Source of the DNA: Escherichia coli
GTDB taxonomy: Bacteria; Pseudomonadota; Gammaproteobacteria; Enterobacterales; Enterobacteriaceae
DNA length: 64,000 nt
NCBI RefSeq assembly: GCF_050920415.1
Contig: NZ_CP169309.1
Direction: 5' to 3' (one strand)
Below the pieces are notes generated by a model. That model had not been told where the DNA came from and made no database searches. It saw nothing but the letters and a program-made list of their open reading frames with translations. This document shows positions 1 through 54,456 of this stretch, in pieces. The position numbers were made by a program, and so were the translations under genes. Position 1 is the first letter of the stretch, and each line of letters begins with the position of its first letter.

Positions 1-1253
1 GCCAGCTTTATCTGTGGCTGTGCCGCCATCGGATCGGAGCCGAACTTATCGCAGCCGGGCAACATTACCCACAGCCGGATCTGGCGTTGTCTCCCGCCGG
101 TTTCAGCGCCAGGGAATCCCTGTTGCCATCTCCCGCCGGAATGCGGGATGGCTACCGGATCTTACAGGACTGGCTCTGTTTCCCTGATGTGCTGTACTTT
201 TTTAATCTCCGCGACGTAGTGGTGCCGGATGGCGTGCTGACCGGCAGTTTTACTCTGCGACTGAATTTTAACCGCCCGTTGCCGGAGGAACTGCACATCA
301 GCCGCGACTCCCTGCGCCTGTACTGCGCCCCGGCGGTGAATCTGTTTGTCCATGACGCCATTCCCTTCGTACCTGACAGCACCCGTCGCGAATATCCGTT
401 GCAGGTCAGCGAAGACTACCCGGATCATTATGATATTTTCAGCGTCAGGGGTATCCGCAACCGGGACAATGGTCCTGAACGCACCGATGGTCTGCGCAAT
501 ATGATGTTATCCCGTGAGCAGAATGTACTCTCCCTGGATAACGATCAGCCGCGCCCGGAATATCATCGCGAGAAGAAAACCATTTACTGGCGGCACCGGA
601 CAAAAACCGCACTGTTACGTGAAACACCGGATCATTTCATTTCGCTGGTTCATTTTGATGGCAGCACGCCAGATGCCTCCCTGATGAGCAGTGAGCCTGT
701 TCTGGTTTCGCTGGTCTGCACCAGTGGTGACAGGCCCTGTTCGCTGGCACCCGGTGATATCTGTGAGGCAGCGGGGCAAAATACCTCCGTGGCGTCATTT
801 TGTAACGTCACCACACCAACAAGACCTGTGCCGCCCGTACCGGATGGCTCCCTGCACTGGTCGCTGCTCAATATTATGACGCTGAACTGGCTGACCATGA
901 ATGACGTGGAAGCCCTGAGGGATATTCTGCGTACGCTGGATCGGCATGGCATTCACAGGCCGCTGACGGCGCGCCTGTCGCCGGAAAAGCTGAACGGACT
1001 GGAGAAACTGGAAACCCTGCCCACCGATCGCCTTTTACGGGGTGTCGTGATACGCGGCCTGTCGTCCACACTGTACGTCAATCCGCAGCCGTTTTCCTGC
1101 GAAGGTGAAATGCACCTGCTGGGAACGGTGCTGTCGCACTTTTTTGCCCTGTACGCCAGCACAAACTCCTGGCATATGCTGACCATGATTAACACAGAAA
1201 CAAAGGAAGCCTGGCGATGGAAGGAAAGAACCGGTCAGTTCCCCCTGATGTAG
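1..1253 (+). CDS. tssF: Type VI secretion baseplate subunit TssF-like, C-terminal part (5' end outside window)
   Basis: Frame-3 ORF open from the window edge to the stop at 1253; overlaps the start of the downstream TssG-like ORF as is typical for tssF-tssG; family assignment from recall, not searched. Confidence 0.5.
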   Translation, partial: QLYLWLCRHRIGAELIAAGQHYPQPDLALSPAGFSARESLLPSPAGMRDGYRILQDWLCFPDVLYFFNLRDVVVPDGVLTGSFTLRLNFNRPLPEELHISRDSLRLYCAPAVNLFVHDAIPFVPDSTRREYPLQVSEDYPDHYDIFSVRGIRNRDNGPERTDGLRNMMLSREQNVLSLDNDQPRPEYHREKKTIYWRHRTKTALLRETPDHFISLVHFDGSTPDASLMSSEPVLVSLVCTSGDRPCSLAPGDICEAAGQNTSVASFCNVTTPTRPVPPVPDGSLHWSLLNIMTLNWLTMNDVEALRDILRTLDRHGIHRPLTARLSPEKLNGLEKLETLPTDRLLRGVVIRGLSSTLYVNPQPFSCEGEMHLLGTVLSHFFALYASTNSWHMLTMINTETKEAWRWKERTGQFPLM

Positions 1254-2281
1254 AAAACGACACGCCCGATAGCGGAAAACGGAATGAGACACAGGCTCTG
1301 CGTGATGCCTGCTACGGCAATTTTTTTGCTGTCACCGATCTGCTGTACCGCAGTCGTGGCGATGCCATTTCACTGAGAACGGAACCGGAGCAGGAAACGG
1401 TTCATTTTCGTGCCAGTCCTGACATCGCGTTTCCCCTGCGGGATATTGAATCGCTGGAAAAAAATACCGCCGATCAGTACGTAATGACCACCCGATTTAT
1501 GGGGTTATCCGGCAGTTCATCACCATTGCCGGGTTACTATCTGGATGAGATGGCCTGGGTGCAGGCACAGGAAGGCGGCAGCACAACGGCGGATTTCCTG
1601 AACCTCTTCACCCACAGGTATACGCAATTTTTGTACCACATCTGGCGAAAATACCGCTGGTATATCAGTTTTCGTAATGGTGGAACGGATAAGATCTCAC
1701 AGCGGATCTATGCGCTTATCGGGCTGGGCAACCCGCGTGTACGGGAACGGCTGGATATCTGCCACAGCAGGCTGCTGGCTTACGCCGGAATATTATCCGG
1801 CCCCGGACGTTCACCGGCAATGATCTGCGATCTGATCGCACACTGTTTTGATCTGCATGATGTCAGACTGGAAAACTGGCAGTTTCGTCGGGTGGCTATT
1901 CCACCTGATCAGCAAACCCGGCTGGGAAGGTGTGAGCCGGATGCCGAAGGGAAGATGCAGGGTAAATCGGTGCTGGGCGTTAATTTTGTTCTCGGCTCGC
2001 GCGTACCGGATTACAGTGGGAAATTTATGTTGTGTATCAGTAACCTGTCACTGCCGCGATATATGGCCTTTTTGCCCGACGGTGAGGAATACCTGGCGCT
2101 GACCACCTTCGTGGCTTTCCTGTTGCGCGATCAGTTTGCCTGGGAGCTGCGGTTAAGTCTTGTGCCAGAGCAAATTGGTGGAATGCGGCTGGGGGATAAG
2201 AGAAGCTCTCAACTGGGGAGAACCAGTTTTATTGGTAAGCCGCCACGCGAACCCTTTGTGACCATACGGGTCAGGGGATAA
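1217..2281 (+). CDS. tssG: Type VI secretion baseplate subunit TssG-like
   Basis: 354-aa ORF overlapping the upstream ORF by 37 nt; contains an FMGLSGSSSPLPGYY motif resembling the conserved TssG FxGLxGxxGPLP signature. Confidence 0.55.
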   Translation: MEGKNRSVPPDVENDTPDSGKRNETQALRDACYGNFFAVTDLLYRSRGDAISLRTEPEQETVHFRASPDIAFPLRDIESLEKNTADQYVMTTRFMGLSGSSSPLPGYYLDEMAWVQAQEGGSTTADFLNLFTHRYTQFLYHIWRKYRWYISFRNGGTDKISQRIYALIGLGNPRVRERLDICHSRLLAYAGILSGPGRSPAMICDLIAHCFDLHDVRLENWQFRRVAIPPDQQTRLGRCEPDAEGKMQGKSVLGVNFVLGSRVPDYSGKFMLCISNLSLPRYMAFLPDGEEYLALTTFVAFLLRDQFAWELRLSLVPEQIGGMRLGDKRSSQLGRTSFIGKPPREPFVTIRVRG

Positions 2282-2616
2282 AGCCTGTACTGGCAATTGT
2301 TCCGGCCTGCGCTTTGCGATCCGTCCTTCCAGAAAATCACTTGCCACCTTTTATGGGTCATTGTATCGTTGCGCCGCGTCTGCAAAATCAGGCGTCGGGA
2401 TTGGTCTCCCGGTTATAACTCGTTGACGGCATATGACATTTCTGTGTCATTTCTGTGCCGTGCGTTCGGCTGCACTTCTATGGTGGGGCCGGGTGGGGGC
2501 GTTGAAAGACGCGCCGGTTCCCAACGAGACCGGTAAGACCAACTCCGTCCGGTTCCACCACCCGTAAGATTGGTCTCTTCAGTGGTGGAAAATATATTCT
2601 CGTTGGAGGCCACATT

Positions 2617-3078
2617 ATGGCTGTTATTTCTGTTCATAAAGACGATTTACTTACCATCCCCTTCAGTGCCGCTACTGATTTCACCGATCTGGCTGCTCAC
2701 TGCGATCGCTTCGCCCAGACCCTGATCGAATGCCACAATCCTGCGCTAAAAATGGCGCTCTGTGGCAGGCTTAATACCTGCCTTGCACTGTTGCGGCCCA
2801 CGCTGAACGAGCCGATCCCGCCGCATCTGATTGACGGTTTTATTACGAATGATTTTCCCGATGTTTCACCCGGTTTTGAACCTGATGCAGAATCACTCTG
2901 CGATTACTGCCTGGCGCTGACACAGATACTGAATGGTCACTCACTGTTACCTGAAACCGAAACCACGCTGACCGGGCTGCTGTGCGAGCTGGTCTGGTAT
3001 TTTGCTGACAGTCTGAAAGCCCCGCACTGGATACGTACCGCTGACGGCGTACAGGTTATCGACGGGAGGCCAGCATGA
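2617..3078 (+). CDS. Hypothetical protein (153 aa), first gene of a two-gene operon with the Ner-like gene
   Basis: ORF with plausible RBS (GGAGG upstream of ATG); stop overlaps start of next ORF (ATGA); no recognisable motif. Confidence 0.5.
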   Translation: MAVISVHKDDLLTIPFSAATDFTDLAAHCDRFAQTLIECHNPALKMALCGRLNTCLALLRPTLNEPIPPHLIDGFITNDFPDVSPGFEPDAESLCDYCLALTQILNGHSLLPETETTLTGLLCELVWYFADSLKAPHWIRTADGVQVIDGRPA

Positions 3079-3329
3079 TGCAGCCGGACTGGCATCCCGC
3101 TGATATTATCGCGGGACTGAGAAAACGGGGGACATCGCTGGCTAAGGTGTCCCGCAGCGCGGGACTGGCGTCCGCCACGCTGGCAAACGCGTTGACCCGT
3201 TCGTGGCCGCGCGGCGAAAAACTCATTGCGGATGCGCTGGAAACATCACCGGAAATTATCTGGCCCTCCAGATATTTCGATAATCAGGGCAACCGCATTG
3301 TAAGACTTATGCGAGAGCGGCGCTCCTGA
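3075..3329 (+). CDS. Ner/Nlp (SfsB)-family HTH DNA-binding protein
   Basis: 84-aa product with DWHPADIIAGLRKRGTSLA...WPSRY, closely resembling recalled Mu Ner / E. coli Nlp(SfsB) proteins. Confidence 0.8.
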   Translation: MMQPDWHPADIIAGLRKRGTSLAKVSRSAGLASATLANALTRSWPRGEKLIADALETSPEIIWPSRYFDNQGNRIVRLMRERRS

Positions 3330-3366
3330 TGGCAGAAGCGTCAGATACAAGGTTACGGTAAAATAT

Positions 3367-3408
3367 CTCCCGGCTCTCTGCCTGCTTCTGCTGGCAGAGA
3401 GCCGGGAG
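3367..3408. terminator. Perfect 16-bp inverted repeat (ctcccggctctctgcc / ggcagagagccgggag) just after the Ner-like gene; terminator-like hairpin without a clear T-run
   Basis: Read directly from sequence. Confidence 0.5.
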
Positions 3409-4219
3409 AAGACAAGCGAAGCGCGGCAGTTTTTCAGTCACGAAGTAAGCAAACAATCTTTTAAACGCAAAAAACGTTTTTTCTTTCTGCGCCAGAAATA
3501 ACGGTGTAATCTCCCTCCTGCACTATGCCTTCGGGCACCCTTTGGCTTCATGGTCTGCAAGAAGCCCCTGATTTATCAGGACGACCAGCCCTTGCTACCG
3601 GTACGACCTCCGCAATACCGGAACGCGAAAGCGTTTGAGGCGAAGTAATTACACACCGGACAGCCCCATCGTCATCGTTTTACCGCAACGGCCTTCACTG
3701 GCTGCAAGGTTTCTCTTTGCCGGAATTTCTCCGGCCTGCTTATCCCCTGCTGATGACCAGCGCCTTTTACATGACGGGCTGCGGCCTGCATTGCCGTCAG
3801 GCTTTGCTGCCGCGTGACCGTTAATCTACCAGACTGTTAATTTTCGAATACTGCACCAGAAACGCAATGTTTACCCCTTGCACCAGACGAGGCGTCACTT
3901 TGATCGCGTCAGCGAAAAAGCAAAGTGACGCCGCACAACTCACCGCCGCAAGCCGCGCCAGTTCTGGCCTGCGCCCTGTTTCCGCCGTCTGACATGCCCT
4001 TTGGGGCCGTTGTCAGCTCAGAGTAAAGGAGAAAAAGATCGATACCGAGGGGGGCACGACGCCCCGGAGACACCCCTGCTTCGTCAGGCAGTCTGTACTG
4101 CGTACAGCCTGAAACTCCCTAAACCTCAACAAACTGCCACTCCGGCGTGAAGGTATCGTTCTGGCGCAGCCAAAAAGCACACGCCGGAGACTGTTTGTTT
4201 TTGTTGTCAGGGGAGAGTC

Positions 4220-5104
4220 ATGAGCAAATTAAGCAGTGAAATGAAGGCGCTGGCGAAGAAAGCGGGCGGCAGCTTCAAAACGGTGAATGATCGTATTCAT
4301 GCCACGAAGCGGTTCAGCCAGCATTTACGCGAACTGAATATCCAGATCCAGCGGGTGGAGCAGATCAAAGTTCGCCATATCGAATGCTACATTCAGGAGC
4401 GGCTGGAGCAGGATATTGGTTTACGCACGCTGCAAAACGAAATGGCGGCGCTGCGCTCCGTACTGAGACTGGCGGGACGCCGACAGGTGGTGGAGCATCC
4501 GCGCCTGACCAATAAGGCGCTGGGGCTGTCAGGCGCTTCGCGCAACGGCACGCGCCGCGCCATTACGCCGGAACATTATGAAAAAGTGATGGAGAGCGCC
4601 CGTGCACAGGATGCGGGGCTGGCGGCAGCGGTGGAGATTGCGCGGCTGATGGGATTACGCTCGCAGGAGGCGGTACAGAGTTCACAGTCGCTGAAAACGT
4701 GGCTGAAAGCCATTTCCCGCGGCGAAACCCGGCTGAAAGTGGTGTTTGGCACCAAAGGCGGGCGTCCACGTTACACAACGATCCTGGACGCTGGTGCAGT
4801 CAGAAAGGCGGTGGAAAACGCGTTACCGATCGCCAGACAGCGCAATGGCAGGCTGATCGACAGGCCTGACCTCAAAACAGCGCTGGAGAGCTGGCACAAA
4901 CAGGCCATTAAGGCGGGACTGAAGGGGGAATTTTCCCCGCACTCACTGCGTTATGCATGGGCACAGGACGCGATCCGTTATTATCTGGCGCAGGGATTCA
5001 GCGAAAAAGAATCCCTGGCGCTGACGGCAACGGATCTGGGCCACGGCGACGGTCGCGGCCGCTGGGTGAAACAGGTGTACGGCTACCGCTGGAAGGAGGA
5101 ATAA
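4220..5104 (+). CDS. Tyrosine-recombinase-like (phage integrase family) protein, atypical, 294 aa
   Basis: HSLRYAWAQD (HxxR-like box), GLRSQE motif and C-terminal Tyr-containing region; strong RBS (GGGGAGAG) before ATG. Confidence 0.55.
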   Translation: MSKLSSEMKALAKKAGGSFKTVNDRIHATKRFSQHLRELNIQIQRVEQIKVRHIECYIQERLEQDIGLRTLQNEMAALRSVLRLAGRRQVVEHPRLTNKALGLSGASRNGTRRAITPEHYEKVMESARAQDAGLAAAVEIARLMGLRSQEAVQSSQSLKTWLKAISRGETRLKVVFGTKGGRPRYTTILDAGAVRKAVENALPIARQRNGRLIDRPDLKTALESWHKQAIKAGLKGEFSPHSLRYAWAQDAIRYYLAQGFSEKESLALTATDLGHGDGRGRWVKQVYGYRWKEE

Positions 5105-6127
5105 CTGAATTCATGAATGGCGCAAAATAGTACGTTATTGTGTAATGACAGCAATCAGTCTGGCGCAGGGACCGGATGAAATAAAACAACCGGATACCTG
5201 CCGTTATCACTTAACAATATAGTGATAATATTGTTACTGTATGGCGAGTAAATATCAATAACCCAGACCTTCCTGCTTCATCAGTGTGTTTTTCTGGAAT
5301 ATTATAGTGATTACCCCTGTAATCACTCGAAACGTTCCCTATTGATAACAGGTGTTTTAATCGTTTTTACCGATACCACAGGACTGGGAAAATGTTAAAA
5401 TGCCAATTCACCAGAATTTCACATTAATTCTGGCGCAGGATTATATCTGAATAATTCTCTCCATGTTTTCCTGCATCCTGTGACATATATTGTATGCTCA
5501 CAGAATGTCTCATGATTTTATAAAAAATGCTGCGACAGTTTTTGACATCATTACCTGCTACATATAGATTAACAATCTTCGGTGCTTCATGTTGTTTTTT
5601 GCACTTTGTGATCATTATCAGGTGGTTAAAATACAATCTGGTGCAGACTGTCATGGCGCATTTCCAAATAAACTGGTTGCGCCAGAAAGGGAAAGGGTCA
5701 TAAAGGTTAAGGGGCAATAAGGGTAACAGCGCCTGACCGGAAAGGGCGGAAAACTAAAGGGCCAGAAACTGGCGCAGTCCTGAGTATTTTAAATCGCAGG
5801 ATGCTGGTGTAGATATCGGCTAATCCGAAATGGTGCAGGATTTTATCTCTGCGTATCTGGTGCGGTTCTTAAAGGTTGCAGGATATATTTTCATGATCAG
5901 GTTGTGGTGCAGATATTTTTGCGTATTAATTGTTTTTTCCGTGAAATTATCGCTTATTGATAGATTTCCACCTGTTTTGATTTGCATGCAAATCAAAACG
6001 GTCAGTTTCCTATTAATAAGGCGTTAATTAATAGGTTTTTACCCAAAATTATTCACTGGTGAATAATTTCGTACTATTTCCAATTAATAATAACAAACAC
6101 AATGGCAATACCTCTCAATACAAAAAA

Positions 6128-6160
6128 GCAGATCCCCGTCAATCAGGATCTGCTTTTCCA
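6128..6160. terminator. Bidirectional rho-independent terminator (gcagatcc...ggatctgc stem flanked by A-run and T-run)
   Basis: Hairpin with flanking A6 and T4; lies about 90 nt downstream of the integrase stop on the minus strand. Confidence 0.6.
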
Positions 6161-6249
6161 TTTTTACAGAATTACATTATTTCTGACTCAGGCAGGCCTG
6201 TGTCACCAGGTATGGCTGATAACGGCTATTTCTGTTGCCATATGGAGCA

Positions 6250-7461
6250 CTATATTGCCCTTACAGTCACAGATGCCTCACTGATCTTCTGCCCCCACCA
6301 ATTCATCAGTTCCACACGCTGAACCAGGTAAACTGCGCGGTTGTAGGCAACACGTGTTGGATTTTCATCAATATGTGACAAAACTGCTTCCACCGCATCC
6401 GGCATAAATCCGGCTTCATGCAGCGCCGTACTGCCCAGCGCGCGGAAACCATGTGAAACCAACTCGCCGCCGTAACCCATCCGCCATAATGCCTTGTTGA
6501 CCGTCTCACTGTGCATTGGCTGGCTGCGTTTAACCCTGCCGGGAAAGACATACAGCGAATGCTCACTTAATGGCTTAAGCTGCGCCAATACCGACATTGC
6601 CTGTGGTGACAGTGGCACCTGGTGCTCACGCTTCATCTTCATGCGTTCAGCCGGGATAGTCCAGAGCCGTTTATCCATATCAATCTCACACCACATCGTT
6701 CCTGCGGCCTCAGCAGGGCGTACCAGGGTCAGGAGTTGCCATTGCAGCAATAACCGCGTCATGGGGCTTAAACAGGTTGTGTGGACCCGCTGCATGAGTT
6801 CCGGCAGACGCTCCGGGCGAATGGTCGGCATATGCTGCTTTTTCGGCTTCACGAATGCTTCATCAATGGTTGACGCCGGGTTTGCATCCAGCAGGCCTGT
6901 ATTAATGGCGAATTTCATGACCTCATTAATTCGCTGCGTCAGCCGGTGCAACGTCTCCAGCGTGCCACGCGCCCGTACAGGCTCCAGGGCGGAAATAAGC
7001 GTGTGCGCTTTCAGTTCTGTCACTGGCATCTGCCCAATGGCCGGGAACACATCGCGCTCCAGCGATCTCCAGATATCGTCTGCATAATCTTCGGAGATTC
7101 TGGTTTTCTTCACCGCGAACCATCTCGTCGCCACATTAATAAACAGGCTCTCCACCGCCAGCCGCTCCCGTTCGGCTTCCTCCTGCTCCAGTTTCTTTGG
7201 GTCAATACCTTTCACAAGCAGGGAAAGCTGTTCGGCGTGTAATGCGCGTGCGCTGGCAAGCGACATGGCAGGATAATGCCCGAGAGTGATGGTGGTTCGC
7301 GCAGTCGAATTTGGCCGTTTGTAACGAAAACGCCAGATCTTTTTACCGCTGGTTCTGACAAACAGGGTCAGCCCCTGCCCGTCAAACAGTTCGTAATCTT
7401 TATCAGAGGGTTTTGCTTTCTGGACTTCGCAAGCTGATAACGGACGGGTAAGAACAGCCAT
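6250..7461 (-). CDS. P4-family site-specific tyrosine integrase
   Basis: 403-aa product with N-terminal DKDYELFDGQGLTLFVRTSGKKIWRFRYK (P4-int signature) and C-terminal catalytic region (HGFRALGST...AYNRA.Y); located immediately downstream of a tRNA operon. Confidence 0.85.
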   Translation of the reverse strand: MAVLTRPLSACEVQKAKPSDKDYELFDGQGLTLFVRTSGKKIWRFRYKRPNSTARTTITLGHYPAMSLASARALHAEQLSLLVKGIDPKKLEQEEAERERLAVESLFINVATRWFAVKKTRISEDYADDIWRSLERDVFPAIGQMPVTELKAHTLISALEPVRARGTLETLHRLTQRINEVMKFAINTGLLDANPASTIDEAFVKPKKQHMPTIRPERLPELMQRVHTTCLSPMTRLLLQWQLLTLVRPAEAAGTMWCEIDMDKRLWTIPAERMKMKREHQVPLSPQAMSVLAQLKPLSEHSLYVFPGRVKRSQPMHSETVNKALWRMGYGGELVSHGFRALGSTALHEAGFMPDAVEAVLSHIDENPTRVAYNRAVYLVQRVELMNWWGQKISEASVTVRAI

Positions 7462-7682: not shown

Positions 7683-7726
7683 TTCTTACTTCCCCGGACT
7701 CTATGAGACATCCCAAGAATGTATGT

Positions 7727-7802
7727 TGGTGGGTCGTGCAGGATTCGAACCTGCGACCAATTGATTAAAAGTCAACTGCTCTACCAACTGAGCTAACGAC
7801 CC
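7727..7802 (-). tRNA. lysV: tRNA-Lys (UUU)
   Basis: 76-nt exact match to recalled E. coli tRNA-Lys sequence (reverse complement), ends CCA. Confidence 0.95.
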
Positions 7803-32821: not shown

Positions 32822-33097
32822 CTATCGCACAGGATGAATAAGATAATTCGCCTTTGTCGGAAAAGGGGGCGTGATGTCTTCTGTGAGATTTAATGGTGGC
32901 GCATCTTCTCTCATCTTAAACAAAATCGCCTGTGATGGTTGAAGTTTTGTAGAATGAGTTGTCGTCATCACTGACGTTTTTTCTGTCTCTTTATAGCTCG
33001 TCTCACTTCCGCCACCAGAAATGGAAAATGCAAAAACATTGCATGCCATAATAGAGACCAATAAAAATAAGCTAAAAAGCATTAAGTTTACTTTCAT
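32822..33097 (-). CDS. ypdI: Small exported protein YpdI
   Basis: 91 aa with signal peptide and lipobox-like MAC motif. Confidence 0.75.
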   Translation of the reverse strand: MKVNLMLFSLFLLVSIMACNVFAFSISGGGSETSYKETEKTSVMTTTHSTKLQPSQAILFKMREDAPPLNLTEDITPPFPTKANYLIHPVR

Positions 33098-49047: not shown

Positions 49048-50043
49048 ATGGCTTCATTAAAGGATGTCGCACGCCTGGCGGGAGTGTCGATGATGACTGT
49101 CTCCCGGGTGATGCATAATGCAGAATCTGTGCGTCCTGCAACGCGTGACCGCGTATTGCAGGCAATCCAAACCCTGAATTATGTTCCTGATCTTTCCGCT
49201 CGTAAGATGCGCGCTCAGGGACGTAAGCCGTCGACTCTCGCCGTGCTGGCGCAGGATACTGCTACCACTCCTTTCTCTGTTGATATTCTGCTTGCCATTG
49301 AACAAACCGCCAGCGAGTTTGGCTGGAATAGTTTTTTAATCAATATTTTTTCTGAAGATGACGCTGCCCGCGCGGCACGTCAGCTGCTTGCCCTCCGTCC
49401 GGATGGCATTATCTATACTACAATGGGACTGAGGCATATCACGCTGCCTGAGTCTCTGCATGGTGAAAATATTGTATTGGCGAACTGTGTGGCGGATGAC
49501 CCAGCGTTACCCAGTTATATCCCTGATGATTACACTGCCCAATATGAAGCAACACAGCATTTGCTCGCGGCGGGCTATCGTCAACCGTTATGCTTCTGGC
49601 TACCGGAAGGTGCGTTGGCAACAGGGTATCGTCGGCAGGGATTTGAGCAGGCCTGGCGTGATGCTGGACGAGATCTGGCTGAGGTGAAACAATTTCACAT
49701 GGCCATAGGTGATGATCACTACACCGATCTCGCAAGTATACTCAATGCCCACTTCCAGTCTGGAAAACCAGATTTTGATGTTCTGATTTGTGGTAACGAT
49801 CGCGCAGCCTTTGTGGCTTATCAGGTTCTTCTGGCGAAGGGGGTACGTATCCCGCAGGATGTCGCCGTAATGGGCTTTGATAATCTGGTTGGCGTCGGGC
49901 ATCTGTTTTTACCGCCGCTGACCACAATTCAGCTTCCACATGACATTATCGGGCGGGAAGCTGCATTGCATATTATTGAAGGTCGTGAAGGGGGAAGGGT
50001 AACGCAGATCCCTTGCCCGCTGTTGCTCCGTTGTTCCACCTGA
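49048..50043 (+). CDS. cscR: LacI-family sucrose operon repressor CscR
   Basis: N-terminal HTH (MASLKDVARLAGVSMMTVSRV) plus periplasmic-binding-like fold; start chosen at this Met rather than the ORF-track start 31 codons upstream. Confidence 0.85.
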   Translation: MASLKDVARLAGVSMMTVSRVMHNAESVRPATRDRVLQAIQTLNYVPDLSARKMRAQGRKPSTLAVLAQDTATTPFSVDILLAIEQTASEFGWNSFLINIFSEDDAARAARQLLALRPDGIIYTTMGLRHITLPESLHGENIVLANCVADDPALPSYIPDDYTAQYEATQHLLAAGYRQPLCFWLPEGALATGYRRQGFEQAWRDAGRDLAEVKQFHMAIGDDHYTDLASILNAHFQSGKPDFDVLICGNDRAAFVAYQVLLAKGVRIPQDVAVMGFDNLVGVGHLFLPPLTTIQLPHDIIGREAALHIIEGREGGRVTQIPCPLLLRCST

Positions 50044-50050
50044 TATTATG

Positions 50051-51484
50051 TTACCCCAGTTGCCAGAGTGCTCCATGTTGCAGCACGGCCACTCCGTGGG
50101 CGGCATAGAGCGACAGTTCCCGTTCTTCTGGCTGCGGATAGATTCGGCTACTCATCACAGCTTCCCCGTCGTTAATAAATACTTCCACGGATGATGTATC
50201 GATAAATATCCTTAGGGCGAGCGTGTCACGCTGCGGGAGGGGAATACTACGGTAACCATCTAAATTCTCGTGTGGGTAATACCGCCACAAAACAAGTCGC
50301 TCAGATTGGTTATCAATATACAGCCGCATTCCCGTGCCGAGCTGTAATCCGTAATGTTCGGCATCGCTGTTCTTCAGAGCCCAGTGCAACTGAATCTCAA
50401 CCGCTTGCGCGTTTTCCTGCAAAACATATTTGTTGCTGATTGTGTGGGGAGAGATTGATTGATGCTGCTGGCGTAACGACTCAGCTTCGTGTACCGGGCG
50501 TTGTAGGAGTTTGCCATTGCTCTCTGAAAGCTCGCGCGCCAGCGTCATGCAGCCTGCCCAGCCTTCACGTTTTGAGGGCATTGGCGATTCCCACATATCC
50601 ATCCAGCCGATAACAATACGCCGACCATCCTTCGCTAAAAAGCTTTGTGGTGCATAAAAGTCATGCCCATTATCAAGTTCAGTAAAATGCCCGGATTGTG
50701 CAAAAAGTCGTCCTGGCGACCATATTCCGGGTATTACACCACTTTGAAAGCGATTTCGATAATTGTATCCCTCGGCATTCATTCCCTGCGGGGAAAACAT
50801 CAGATAATGTTGATCGCCAAGGCTGAAAAAGTCCGGACATTCCCACATATAGCTTTCACCCGCATCAGCGTGGGCCAGTACGCGATCGAAAGTCCATTCA
50901 CGCAATGAACTGCCGCGATAAAGCAGGATCTGTCCCGTGTTGCCTGGGTCTTTCGCCCCGACTACCATCCACCAGGTGTCGGCTTCACGCCACACTTTAG
51001 GATCGCGGAAGTGCATGATTCCTTCTGGTGGAGTGAGGATCACACCTTGTTTCTCGAAATGAATACCATCCCGGCTGGTAGCCAGACATTGTACTTCACG
51101 AATTGCATCGTCATTACCTGCACCATCGAGCCAGACGTGGCCGGTGTAGATAAGTGAGAGGACACCATTGTCATCAACAGCACTACCTGAAAAACACCCG
51201 TCTTTGTCATTCTCGTCTCCTGGCGCTAGCGCAATAGGCTCGTGCTGCCAGTGGATCATATCGTCGCTGGTGGCATGTCCCCAGTGCATTGGCCCCCAGT
51301 GTTCGCTCATCGGGTGATGCTGATAAAACGCGTGATAACGATTGTTAAACCAGATCAGGCCGTTTGGATCGTTCATCCACCCGGCTGGAGGCGCGAGGTG
51401 AAAATGGGGATAAAAAGTATTCCCCCGGCGCTCGTGAAGTTTTGCTAGTGCGTTTTGCGCCGCATGCAATCGAGATTGCGTCAT
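50051..51484 (-). CDS. cscA: Sucrose-6-phosphate hydrolase / invertase CscA (GH32)
   Basis: GH32 N-terminal catalytic motif (WMNDPNGL) and the RDP and EC motifs; start uncertain by 3 codons. Confidence 0.9.
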   Translation of the reverse strand: MTQSRLHAAQNALAKLHERRGNTFYPHFHLAPPAGWMNDPNGLIWFNNRYHAFYQHHPMSEHWGPMHWGHATSDDMIHWQHEPIALAPGDENDKDGCFSGSAVDDNGVLSLIYTGHVWLDGAGNDDAIREVQCLATSRDGIHFEKQGVILTPPEGIMHFRDPKVWREADTWWMVVGAKDPGNTGQILLYRGSSLREWTFDRVLAHADAGESYMWECPDFFSLGDQHYLMFSPQGMNAEGYNYRNRFQSGVIPGIWSPGRLFAQSGHFTELDNGHDFYAPQSFLAKDGRRIVIGWMDMWESPMPSKREGWAGCMTLARELSESNGKLLQRPVHEAESLRQQHQSISPHTISNKYVLQENAQAVEIQLHWALKNSDAEHYGLQLGTGMRLYIDNQSERLVLWRYYPHENLDGYRSIPLPQRDTLALRIFIDTSSVEVFINDGEAVMSSRIYPQPEERELSLYAAHGVAVLQHGALWQLG

Positions 51485-51699
51485 TTTAATCATCCTGGTT
51501 AAGCAAATTTGGTGAATTGTTAACGTTAACTTTTATAAAAATAAAGCCCCTTATCTTTATAAATGTGATTAATATCACAAATGTTAACGTTAACTATGAC
51601 GTTTTGTGATCGAATGTGCATGTTTTAGTAAATCCATGACGATTTTGCGAAAAAGAGGTTTATCACTATGCGTAAGTCAGATGAATTTGAGGGAAAAAA

Positions 51700-52614
51700 A
51701 TGTCAGCCAAAGTATGGGTTTTAGGGGATGCGGTTGTCGATCTCTTGCCTGAATCAGACGGGCGCCTACTGCCTTGTCCTGGCGGCGCGCCAGCTAACGT
51801 TGCGGTGGGAATCGCCAGATTAGGCGGAATAAGTGGGTTTATAGGCCGGGTGGGTGATGATCCTTTTGGCGCGTTAATGCAAAGAACGCTGCTAACGGAG
51901 GGAGTCGATATCACGTATCTGAAGCAGGATGAATGGCACCGAACATCCACGGTGCTTGTCGATCTGAACGATCAGGGGGAACGTTCATTTACGTTTATGG
52001 TCCGCCCTGGTGCCGATCTTTTTTTAGAGACGACTGACTTGCCCTTCTGGCGACATGGCGAATGGTTACATCTCTGTTCTATTGCGTTGTCTGCTGAACC
52101 TTCGCGTACCAGCGCATTTACTGCGATGACGGCGATCCGGCATGCCGGAGGTTTTGTCAGCTTCGATCCCAATATTCGTGAAGATCTGTGGCAAGACGAG
52201 CATTTGCTCCGCTTGTGTTTGCGACAGGCGCTACAACTGGCGGATGTCGTCAAGCTCTCGGAAGAAGAATGGCGACTTATCAGCGGAAAAACACAGAACG
52301 ATCGGGATATATGTGCTCTGGCAAAAGAGTATGAGATCGCCATGCTGTTGGTGACTAAAGGTGCAGAAGGGGTGGTGGTCTGTTATCGAGGACAAGTTCA
52401 CCATTTTGCTGGAATGTCTGTGAATTGTGTCGATAGCACGGGGGCGGGAGATGCGTTCGTTGCCGGGTTACTCACAGGTCTTTCCTCTACGGGATTAGAG
52501 ACCGATGAGAGAGAAATGCGACGAATTATCGATCTCGCTCAACGTTGTGGAGCGCTTGCAGTAACGGCGAAAGGGGCAATGACAGCGCTGCCATGTCGAC
52601 AAGATCTGGAATAG
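51700..52614 (+). CDS. cscK: Fructokinase CscK (PfkB/ribokinase family)
   Basis: 304 aa; PfkB signature (DSTGAGDAFVAG). Confidence 0.9.
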   Translation: MSAKVWVLGDAVVDLLPESDGRLLPCPGGAPANVAVGIARLGGISGFIGRVGDDPFGALMQRTLLTEGVDITYLKQDEWHRTSTVLVDLNDQGERSFTFMVRPGADLFLETTDLPFWRHGEWLHLCSIALSAEPSRTSAFTAMTAIRHAGGFVSFDPNIREDLWQDEHLLRLCLRQALQLADVVKLSEEEWRLISGKTQNDRDICALAKEYEIAMLLVTKGAEGVVVCYRGQVHHFAGMSVNCVDSTGAGDAFVAGLLTGLSSTGLETDEREMRRIIDLAQRCGALAVTAKGAMTALPCRQDLE

Positions 52615-52685
52615 TGAGAAATAAACGGCGAGGCCGTTCTTGTCTCTGAATAGGACGTGAATATTTTAACGACAGGCAGGTAATT

Positions 52686-53933
52686 ATGGCACTGAATATA
52701 CCATTCAGAAATGTGTACTATCGTTTTGCATCCAGTTACTCATTTCTCTTTTTTATTTCCTGGTCGCTGTGGTGGTCGTTATACGCTATTTGGCTGAAAG
52801 GACATCTAGGGTTGACTGGGACGGAATTAGGTACACTTTATTCGGTCAACCAGTTTACCAGTATTCTATTTATGATGGTCTACGGCATCGTCCAGGATAA
52901 ACTCGGTCTGAAGAAACCGCTTATCTGGTGTATGAGTTTCATCCTGGTCTTGACCGGACCGTTTATGATTTACGTTTATGAACCGTTACTGCAAAGCAAT
53001 TTTTCTGTAGGTCTAATTTTGGGGGCGCTCTTTTTTGGCTTGGGGTATCTGGCGGGCTGCGGTCTGCTTGATAGCTTCACCGAAAAAATGGCACGAAATT
53101 TTCATTTCGAATATGGAACAGCGCGCGCCTGGGGATCTTTTGGCTATGCGATTGGCGCGTTCTTTGCTGGCATATTTTTCAGTATCAGTCCCCATATCAA
53201 CTTCTGGTTGGTTTCGCTATTTGGCGCTGTATTTATGATGATCAACATGCGTTTTAAATATCAGGATCAGCAGTGCGTAGCGGCAGATGCGGGAGGGGTA
53301 AAAAAAGAGGATTTTATTGCAGTTTTCAAGGACCGAAACTTCTGGATTTTCGTCATATTTATTGTGGGGACGTGGTCTTTCTATAACATTTTTGATCAAC
53401 AGCTCTTTCCTGTTTTTTATGCAGGTTTATTCGAATCACACGATGTAGGAACGCGCCTGTATGGTTATCTCAACTCATTCCAGGTTGTACTCGAAGCGCT
53501 GTGCATGGCCATTATTCCTTTCTTTGTTAATCGGGTAGGGCCAAAAAATGCATTACTTATCGGTGTTGTGATTATGGCGTTGCGTATTCTTTCCTGCGCA
53601 CTGTTCGTTAATCCCTGGATTATTTCATTAGTGAAGCTTTTACATGCCATTGAGGTTCCACTGTGTGTCATTTCCGTCTTCAAATACAGCGTGGCAAACT
53701 TTGATAAACGCCTGTCGTCGACGATCTTTCTGATTGGTTTTCAAATTGCCAGTTCGTTGGGGATTGTGTTGCTTTCAACGCCGACTGGAATACTTTTTGA
53801 CCATGCAGGTTACCAGACGGTTTTCTTCGTAATTTCGGGTATTGTCTGCCTGATGTTGTTATTTGGCATTTTCTTCCTGAGTAAAAAACGTGAGCAAATG
53901 GTGATGGAAACGCCTGTACCTTCTGCAATATAG
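52686..53933 (+). CDS. cscB: Sucrose:H+ symporter CscB (MFS, LacY-like)
   Basis: 415 aa, 12-TM oligosaccharide:H+ symporter family. Confidence 0.9.
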   Translation: MALNIPFRNVYYRFASSYSFLFFISWSLWWSLYAIWLKGHLGLTGTELGTLYSVNQFTSILFMMVYGIVQDKLGLKKPLIWCMSFILVLTGPFMIYVYEPLLQSNFSVGLILGALFFGLGYLAGCGLLDSFTEKMARNFHFEYGTARAWGSFGYAIGAFFAGIFFSISPHINFWLVSLFGAVFMMINMRFKYQDQQCVAADAGGVKKEDFIAVFKDRNFWIFVIFIVGTWSFYNIFDQQLFPVFYAGLFESHDVGTRLYGYLNSFQVVLEALCMAIIPFFVNRVGPKNALLIGVVIMALRILSCALFVNPWIISLVKLLHAIEVPLCVISVFKYSVANFDKRLSSTIFLIGFQIASSLGIVLLSTPTGILFDHAGYQTVFFVISGIVCLMLLFGIFFLSKKREQMVMETPVPSAI

Positions 53934-54368
53934 ACGTAAACTCTTTCCGGTTGTTGTCGATAGCTCTATATCCCTCAACCGGAAAATAATAATACCAAAA
54001 TGCTTAGCGCGGCTAATAATCGCCTAATCCAAACGCCTCATTCATGTTCTGGAACAGCCGCTCAAATGTACTCAGGATACGCGGTTCGCTGATTTCCAGG
54101 AAATTGTCGTAATTCAGCGACCTGTCCCGTGTATCACGGGCCTGCTAATCCATCAAGGAATGCATTGCGGAGTGAAGTATCGAGTCAAGCCAGATTTCGC
54201 GATCAGGATTCTGTGTGATGATTACATTGCCAGGCCCGGGGCTGTTTAGTCATCGCCGCACAGTGCTGAGATTTCAACCTGTTGCAGGGAAAATGAGTAG
54301 ATTTAGGGCAAGTGTGCTGCCAAACCCAACTTTTACGCGGGGAAGGTAGATTTCGTTGGAAGGATAAA

Positions 54369-54383
54369 TGGTGTCCCCTGCAG
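54369..54383 (-). repeat. att core: 15-nt copy of the 3' end of tRNA-Arg argW (CTGCAGGGGACACCA on the minus strand)
   Basis: Exact match to the recalled argW 3' end; no complete tRNA gene here, so this is the duplicated core at the int-distal prophage junction. Confidence 0.7.
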
Positions 54384-54456
54384 ACATCTACTTGAAGCGA
54401 CAGGGGATTGATTGGAATGGTGTTTTTTAGATGTGAGAAATATTTTACCCGCTATT

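Follow-up and report, generated by a model that had tools for sequence, protein, structure and literature searches.

A tRNA-Lys island of Escherichia coli that pairs vgrG with orphan tssF and tssG: a candidate mobile spike-plus-wedge-core module for type VI secretion

It is usually thought that the auxiliary modules of type VI secretion systems (T6SSs) supply secreted parts alone: Hcp, VgrG, PAAR proteins and effectors. A stretch of 64,000 nucleotides from the chromosome of Escherichia coli MFDS1022581 (the window, in whose coordinates all positions are given unless a locus or record is named; it matches record NZ_CP169399.1 from position 1,511,197 at 100% identity) begins inside a mobile island at the tRNA-Lys gene lysV, in which two baseplate genes, tssF and tssG, lie divergently from a vgrG gene. 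The lysV island belongs to an already known but barely characterised kind. The small set of core genes that it carries is ancient and has been conserved under selection, and the explanation that best fits the evidence as a whole, one we regard as probable, is a mobile spike-plus-wedge-core module that borrows the rest of the core from a related T6SS resident in the host.

The two genes are almost certainly genuine type VI secretion baseplate genes, to judge from profile and structural alignments. The window holds the 3′ two thirds of tssF (1–1253, plus strand; the frame, 3–1253, is open to the left window edge), and this part covers positions 200–607 of the 608 in the Pfam profile T6SS_TssF (PF05947, E 2.7e-62) at 211.6 bits, the cut-off being 25 bits. 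The full gene (1510602–1512449 in NZ_CP169399.1) starts 595 nt before the window and encodes 615 amino acids. Its product scores 448 bits with the TssF equivalog model TIGR03359 (cut-off 260; residues 5–614 on profile positions 2–599 of 600) and has a Pfam E-value of 3.4e-108; residues 5–608 align in one continuous stretch to residues 6–580 of TssF from enteroaggregative E. coli (EAEC; 6giy_A, E 1.4e-55). With domain limits taken from PMC6300606, the protein is predicted to keep the three-domain layout of the solved TssF: an N-terminal helix, central beta-barrels and a C-terminal domain. The tssG gene is complete (1217–2281, plus strand, 354 amino acids) and matches PF06996 over profile positions 6–304 of 304 (E 3.6e-86) and TIGR03347 at 312 bits (cut-off 143); its product aligns to the solved EAEC TssG (6giy_C 12–325, E 7e-28). 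The two genes overlap by 37 nt, and the overlap is identical in complete T6SS clusters. A preliminary description of this stretch had called the two open reading frames (ORFs) TssF-like and TssG-like; hidden Markov model searches confirm both calls, with scores above the curated cut-offs for T6SS families and no match to phage baseplate families.

The element as a whole is, with very high confidence, a mobile island of ∼16 kb that a P4-type integrase has inserted into the 3′ end of lysV. The integrase gene (6250–7461, minus strand, 403 amino acids) encodes Arm-DNA-bind_3, Phage_int_M and Phage_integrase domains and scores 521 bits with NF007246 (cut-off 434). It adjoins the integration target, the tRNA-Lys(UUU) gene lysV (7727–7802, minus strand; found by ARAGORN and the Rfam tRNA model). 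Comparison with K-12, which is colinear with the island flanks across an empty site, places the core of attR at 7726–7744 (no strand assigned): the 19-mer TTGGTGGGTCGTGCAGGAT, the 3′ end of lysV. An 18/19 copy of it at 32945–32963 of locus L001 (the lysV island and its surroundings), 15.98 kb to the left of attR and outside the window, is attL. The features of a tRNA-integrated island are thus all found here: the integrase adjoins a tRNA gene, the tRNA 3′ end is directly repeated at either end, and relatives have the site empty. The location of tssF and tssG in an integrase-bearing island, as first described, is therefore right; ‘integrase-bounded’ holds on the integrase side, but the other end is the 18/19 copy of the tRNA 3′ end. 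An exact 19-bp repeat at L001 32789 was considered as attL and rejected, because the K-12 comparison assigns it to an RtT-like unit that is native to the DNA downstream of lysV. This duplicated unit of ∼155 bp, annotated as the small RNA RtT, occurs in E. coli including K-12; it contains the terminator and a further copy of the final 19 nt of the tRNA region, and mimics an att repeat (L001 32789–32963). In K-12 (L027) two exact copies of the 19-mer start 156 bp apart.

To the left of the window, between xapR and lysV, the annotated source record has on the minus strand genes for a PAAR protein, four hypothetical proteins, a DUF4123 adaptor and VgrG; tssF and tssG run divergently from vgrG on the plus strand. 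VgrG scores 600 bits with TIGR03361, and the DUF4123 and PAAR_motif models are also matched. In that record no tssA–E, tssH, tssJ–M or hcp lies upstream, so the premise that these genes stand at the edge of a T6SS cluster is not supported. Between attL and attR the island carries three of the 13 T6SS core genes (vgrG, that is tssI, with tssF and tssG) plus PAAR, and falls short of the complete set of tssA–tssM at one locus. Its vgrG, adaptor, effector candidates and PAAR, with the main cluster 2.6 Mb away, are the constituents of a VgrG island. The four cargo ORFs lie consecutively between the adaptor and PAAR genes (L001 33421–37500; 443, 341, 309 and 237 amino acids) and match no Pfam, NCBIfam or PHROG family even at permissive E-values; the 443-residue protein directly after the DUF4123 adaptor is a candidate new T6SS effector. 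On the other side, tss content does stop at 2281, as had been noted: the remaining 61.7 kb of the window hold no tss gene. That tssG is the last tss gene therefore stands, but what ends there is not a T6SS cluster; it is an arrangement fixed across a family of islands.

The lysV island itself was found in one of 5,426 complete E. coli genomes, the set to which all E. coli prevalence counts refer. A relative that is 84% identical over part of the region lies at tRNA-Asn in 30 of these genomes, most of them of the O145:H28 clone (O145 island, L002). Its order, the asnT type, is PAAR…vgrG divergent from tssF–tssG–orf153–ner–(higA)–Integrase_1–P4 integrase–tRNA, and the same order occurs in Escherichia sp. 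(L004) and Citrobacter freundii (L010, L011). Islands of Salmonella enterica (L012–L014) have it minus orf153 and ner, with vgrG divergent from tssF–tssG–EFASI–Integrase_1. The succession of vgrG, divergent tssF–tssG, backbone and Integrase_1 is shared in this way by five independent islands in three genera, at 58–92% protein identity. Among islands TssF is 58–92% and TssG 69–92% identical; the P4-type integrases of the lysV and asnT types share 35% identity. Both tss genes are intact in all islands examined, and both are under purifying selection: the ratio of nonsynonymous to synonymous substitution rates (dN/dS) is 0.14–0.24 for orphan tssF and 0.11–0.22 for orphan tssG in all 10 pairs, including the unsaturated pair (dS 0.23–0.34). 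The range in complete clusters is similar, at 0.06–0.19 for tssF and 0.07–0.23 for tssG.

The DNA that follows tssG, the backbone (2340–5110), is far more widely distributed, being present in 572 of the E. coli genomes and in 182 of them at ≥80% coverage. In strains D4, 98208, Z142-1 and E67 it lies at tRNA-Asn beside Rhs or DUF2169 cargo, without vgrG, tssF or tssG. At these block-less junctions the 5′ end of an Rhs gene is followed by ∼265 nt of AT-rich DNA that replaces the block, and the sequence then resumes with the part that starts 45–100 nt past the tssG stop in full islands. The three genes vgrG, tssF and tssG are thus gained or lost as one block. Islands built on this backbone (C4-like RNA, orf153, ner, EFASI and Integrase_1) usually sit at tRNA-Asn and carry Rhs or DUF2169 cargo and many pseudogenes (loci L023–L026); they are a widespread, apparently unnamed family of T6SS-effector islands.

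Orphan and complete-cluster genes fall into distinct groups. TssG relatives with at least 73% identity were orphans in all five cases checked, and those with at most 58% lay in complete clusters in all seven; the check covered these two ranges, on either side of the matches at 63–71% identity. Complete clusters have the order hcp–vgrG divergent from tssB–C–E–F–G–tagH–J–K–L–clpV–vasI–tssA–tssM. Between orphans and complete clusters TssF is 46–49% identical (about 47%) and TssG 52–58% (about 56%), and the orphans form a separate clade; within each group TssF is about 65% identical, and TssG is 66% identical among complete clusters and 76% among orphans. The divergence of TssF between the groups is greatest in the central domain (40% identity, with one stretch of 50 residues at 21%), the N-terminal stem being 61% and the C-terminal trimerisation domain 58% identical. 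The gp27-like domain of VgrG likewise forms an island clade, 71–96% identical within the clade and 53–59% identical to resident or complete-cluster VgrGs. This domain travels with TssF and TssG, and the C-termini of VgrG are swapped along with the cargo.

A complete T6SS with the architecture of these clusters lies at aspV in the host genome (L019; 4.109–4.152 Mb, 2.6 Mb from the island), with tssA, B, C, E, F, G, H, J, K, L and M, hcp and vgrG, and its core genes are free of pseudogene flags. Its TssF and TssG are 49% and 55% identical to the island copies. Copies of IS21 and IS2 interrupt the vgrG/effector arm of this locus. The locus also has a truncated vgrG and, at its edge, a group II intron. 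The aspV-type tssC allele occurs in about 550 of the E. coli genomes, including EAEC 042. A second allele family with the same T6SS architecture (L008 type), whose tssC lies outside megablast detection by the aspV/042-type sequence, occurs in about 29, never in the same genome as an orphan tssF–tssG island.

A mechanism can be proposed from gene content, co-inheritance and the structure of a distant homologue. The wedge core is a (TssF)2–TssG heterotrimer, in which TssG loops hold two TssK trimers, the central domain of TssF touches the VgrG OB (oligonucleotide/oligosaccharide-binding) fold and TssB/C, and TssE binds the N-terminal stem; VgrG has been proposed to nucleate wedge assembly (PMC6300606). 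The VgrG, TssF and TssG of the island would accordingly be three mutually touching proteins at the centre of the baseplate, and might form a hub and wedge core specific to the island, to which TssE, TssK, the TssJLM membrane complex, Hcp, TssBC, TssA and ClpV would then be recruited out of the aspV T6SS, and the toxins of the island would be fired by the machine of the host. The divergence of the TssF central domain, with the stem and C-terminal domain more conserved, is consistent with such a model. Secretion of the island VgrG and effector by way of the resident T6SS is predicted from sequence, and firing of the module through the resident machine is a step that we put forward tentatively, as somewhat less secure than the overall explanation. 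More speculative still is the notion that vgrG–tssF–tssG is a transferable ‘hub plus wedge-core’ kit with which the island re-tools, or competes for, the resident T6SS.

Two other readings concern what the genes are and how they came to stand alone. TssF and TssG are distantly related in structure to T4 gp6 and gp7 (PMC6300606), and the island contains phage-like regulatory parts, so the ORFs might be baseplate proteins of a phage or another contractile injection system (of the gp6/gp7 or P2 J/I type). This is exceedingly improbable: both equivalog cut-offs are surpassed by wide margins with no phage family matched, both proteins align end to end with the solved T6SS proteins, their nearest relatives outside the orphans occur in complete T6SS clusters, and the island has no capsid, tail-tube or sheath genes. 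The preliminary description had also raised truncation by later insertions, in which case the locus would be the remnant of a once complete cluster, the rest lost to insertion of the Ner-like operon and recombinases, with tssF and tssG as decaying leftovers. The closest complete clusters do have vgrG divergent from tssB–C–E–F–G, the island layout resembling such a cluster minus hcp, tssBCE and everything after tssG, and an ancient origin by reduction of a complete cluster is plausible. Recent truncation at lysV is rejected, however, because the same order is shared by five islands across three genera and the genes are under purifying selection. The boundaries are identical despite the divergence of the islands, both genes are intact everywhere, and the backbone directly 3′ of tssG is conserved and exists without the block too; any reduction must lie far back, with selection then acting on what was left. 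The remnant explanation is accordingly considered very unlikely.

Several observations weigh against delivery through a resident machine. About 540 of the 572 E. coli backbone copies lack the block, which is therefore dispensable, and orphan tssF may be under somewhat weaker constraint than its counterpart in complete clusters. The VgrG OB fold is 84–88% identical between island and resident proteins, so a dedicated wedge is not obviously required; and as the island has no tssE or tssK, heterologous partners only 49–55% identical would have to fit. The O145:H28 lineage keeps vgrG–tssF–tssG intact, though a deletion has left little but hcp of its aspV T6SS: at that locus in strain RM12761 (L020, 245–248 kb) tRNA-Asp and yafV are separated by just the terminal hcp and one hypothetical gene. 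T6SS presence in named genomes was assessed with four probes in the megablast range, which covers alleles at least ∼85% identical to a probe, and within that range none of the four matched the O145:H28 genomes. Among the 30 asnT-type carriers, aspV-type tssC occurs in only three, and the probes for L008-type tssC, EAEC Sci-1 tssF and aai tssC found no match. The block can therefore persist without its proposed partner, although the O145:H28 lineage is clonal, which tempers the weight of this case. The same facts (the intact block in genomes with a deleted aspV T6SS, and the low co-occurrence with aspV-type tssC), and the position of the block next to a phage-like regulatory cassette, favour an alternative in which orphan TssF–TssG is functional but serves another end: interference, some other role for the element, or carriage as stranded cargo in many hosts. 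In its interference form, titration of TssK, TssE or VgrG would provide an element-encoded brake or competitor. The block, however, always occurs together with vgrG and with cargo of the usual secreted kind (Rhs, a DUF4123 adaptor with its effector, and PAAR), an arrangement that would have no sense unless they were fired by something; the host studied here has a complete related T6SS, and no precedent for such interference was found in the literature. We consider this alternative unlikely, and the borrowing of resident core parts by a mobile module remains the favoured explanation.

Should the ‘hub plus wedge-core’ kit be real, the modularity of the T6SS baseplate would extend across systems that share only about 50% identity, and mobile elements would exploit this for the firing of their own toxins. 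A selected wedge-core pair that is gained and lost with vgrG suggests that the fit between hub and wedge may be a specificity step in the loading of new spikes, and natural protein pairs of about 50% identity turn baseplate modularity into a directly testable question. For genome surveys, a locus of the lysV type should not be scored as a T6SS cluster, whether whole or partial: tools that count tssF and tssG matches would overcall T6SS in O145:H28 and similar strains.

The backbone opens with an RNA cassette. The gap after tssG, first described as about 330 nt of non-coding DNA, is indeed 335 nt long (2281 to orf153), but it is not plain non-coding sequence, as it holds matches to Rfam RNA families. 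A candidate sigma-70-like promoter (TTGCCA-17-TATCGT; 2341–2369, plus strand), a weak call from a consensus scan alone, lies 5′ of the cassette. It is followed on the same strand by a c4-a1b1-like target region (2363–2415; RF03163, 43.1 bits, just below the gathering score of 46.7), an overlapping isrK-like RNA (2376–2454; RF01394, 53.2 bits, gathering score 50) and a C4 antisense RNA-like gene of the phage P1/P7 immI type (2476–2565; RF01695, 68.1 bits, gathering score 45). In the O145 island both the a1b1-like region (49.1 bits) and the isrK-like RNA exceed their gathering scores. L002, L004 and L010 have the C4-like RNA in the corresponding position, and it is present in all islands with orf153. 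The cassette (2363–2565) adjoins orf153 and the Ner-like gene on their upstream side and is kept in the islands of E. coli, Escherichia sp. and Citrobacter; an Rfam scan of related islands found it absent from the Salmonella island.

The first gene after the C4-like RNA, orf153 (2617–3078, plus strand), represents an uncharacterised family with no Pfam, NCBIfam or PHROG match; its 228 homologues across Enterobacterales are all either nameless or labelled ‘ash family’. The labels ‘ash family protein’ and PF10554 occur only on ORF calls that reach upstream of orf153 across the C4-like RNA gene (L011 11162–11839, L025 12123–12281; five proteins), and this annotation may be a conserved RNA gene read as protein. 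The orf153 stop is overlapped by 4 nt by the gene for a Ner-like HTH_35 DNA-binding protein (3075–3329, plus strand, 84 amino acids; PF13693, E 1.2e-32), which also matches PHROG 769, a transcriptional repressor family (E 3.6e-29), and scores 114 bits with the SfsB model, under its cut-off of 150. Just 3′ of this gene, a strong hairpin with 20-nt arms that are 95% complementary (3366–3409, plus strand) is a possible terminator. An EFASI RNA motif (4034–4162, plus strand; RF02957, 99.2 bits, gathering score 51.2) stands immediately 5′ of an intact gene for a tyrosine recombinase of 294 amino acids with Integrase_1 and Phage_int_SAM_2 domains (4220–5104, plus strand; PF12835, E 3.4e-59; PF12834, E 2.5e-40). 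The EFASI RNA is at the same place in L002, L004, L010 and L012; the recombinase gene lies downstream of tssG in every island checked, and the EFASI–Integrase_1 pair is in all of them. The Ner-like gene and recombinase genes reported after tssG are thus borne out by HTH_35, Integrase_1 and P4-type integrase matches. Between the two recombinase genes is an AT-rich spacer (5105–6249, no strand assigned; GC about 42%) with near-palindromes at 5953–6020 and 6027–6088 and no convincing gene. A search for an invertible switch beside the Integrase_1 recombinase gave only short inverted repeats of low identity and no convincing flanking pair. An alignment of the vgrG–tssF intergenic regions of the five islands showed them to be AT-rich, with 51% column identity and no shared motif, and a promoter scan of these regions gave fewer matches than shuffled sequences.

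From gltX to fadJ the window is core chromosome. At about 49048–54443 a sucrose-utilisation set (LacI-type regulator, cscA, kinase and a major facilitator superfamily transporter) lies beside dsdA and the tRNA-Arg gene argW, with a truncated dsdX next to it; we take this to be a known variable region of E. coli.

Parts of the lysV island resemble several known systems. The putative regulatory cassette recalls the immI locus of phages P1 and P7 (c4 RNA, icd, ant) and the Salmonella IsrK locus, with C4, isrK and weak a1b1 matches; against the background of P1 immI and IsrK biology, the order of targets, C4 and downstream ORFs is that of P1, and no profile search found homology of orf153 or the Ner-like protein to icd/ant or AnrP. 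The Rhs islands at tRNA-Asn (D4, 98208, Z142-1, E67) share the C4-like RNA, orf153, ner, EFASI, Integrase_1 and P4-type integrase and likewise carry T6SS-type cargo (Rhs core, DUF2169); they differ in having many pseudogenes and no vgrG–tssF–tssG block. The nearest complete relatives are the resident aspV T6SS, of the type found in EAEC 042 at 0.26 Mb, and Enterobacteriaceae clusters with a V. cholerae-like order. These share with the island the tssF/tssG overlap and a vgrG divergent from the tssB…G operon, but hold all 13 core genes, against three at lysV.

Auxiliary modules and vgrG islands, such as the Aux clusters of V. cholerae and VgrG5a of P. ogarae (PMC10671463), place vgrG, an adaptor, an effector/immunity pair and PAAR away from the main cluster. 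Reviews and surveys define them by hcp, vgrG or PAAR alone (PMC10763514, PMC13098142), and the vgrG islands that Ma et al. 2018 described in E. coli (cited in PMC6730261) appear to be modules of this auxiliary type. Such modules are thought to load onto the resident machine. To this plan the lysV island adds the wedge-core genes tssF and tssG, and it does so on a tRNA-integrated element with two recombinases. The ‘incomplete clusters’ described in Klebsiella and Pantoea were considered as parallels and set aside as different things. Functional work on orphan tssF/tssG was not found in the literature, where the only mention found is a 2026 paper on Salmonella enterica subsp. diarizonae that reports a VgrG-associated island containing both genes (PMC13304343). 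The paper treats the island solely as the home of a phospholipase D effector, with no analysis of the pair tssF/tssG, of the backbone or of the distribution. The S. diarizonae island has the same unusual gene set as the lysV island and differs in host, integration site and cargo: phospholipase D and Sel1 there, a DUF4123 adaptor and the four ORFs without family matches at lysV. Compared by description rather than by sequence, the two islands likely belong to the same family.

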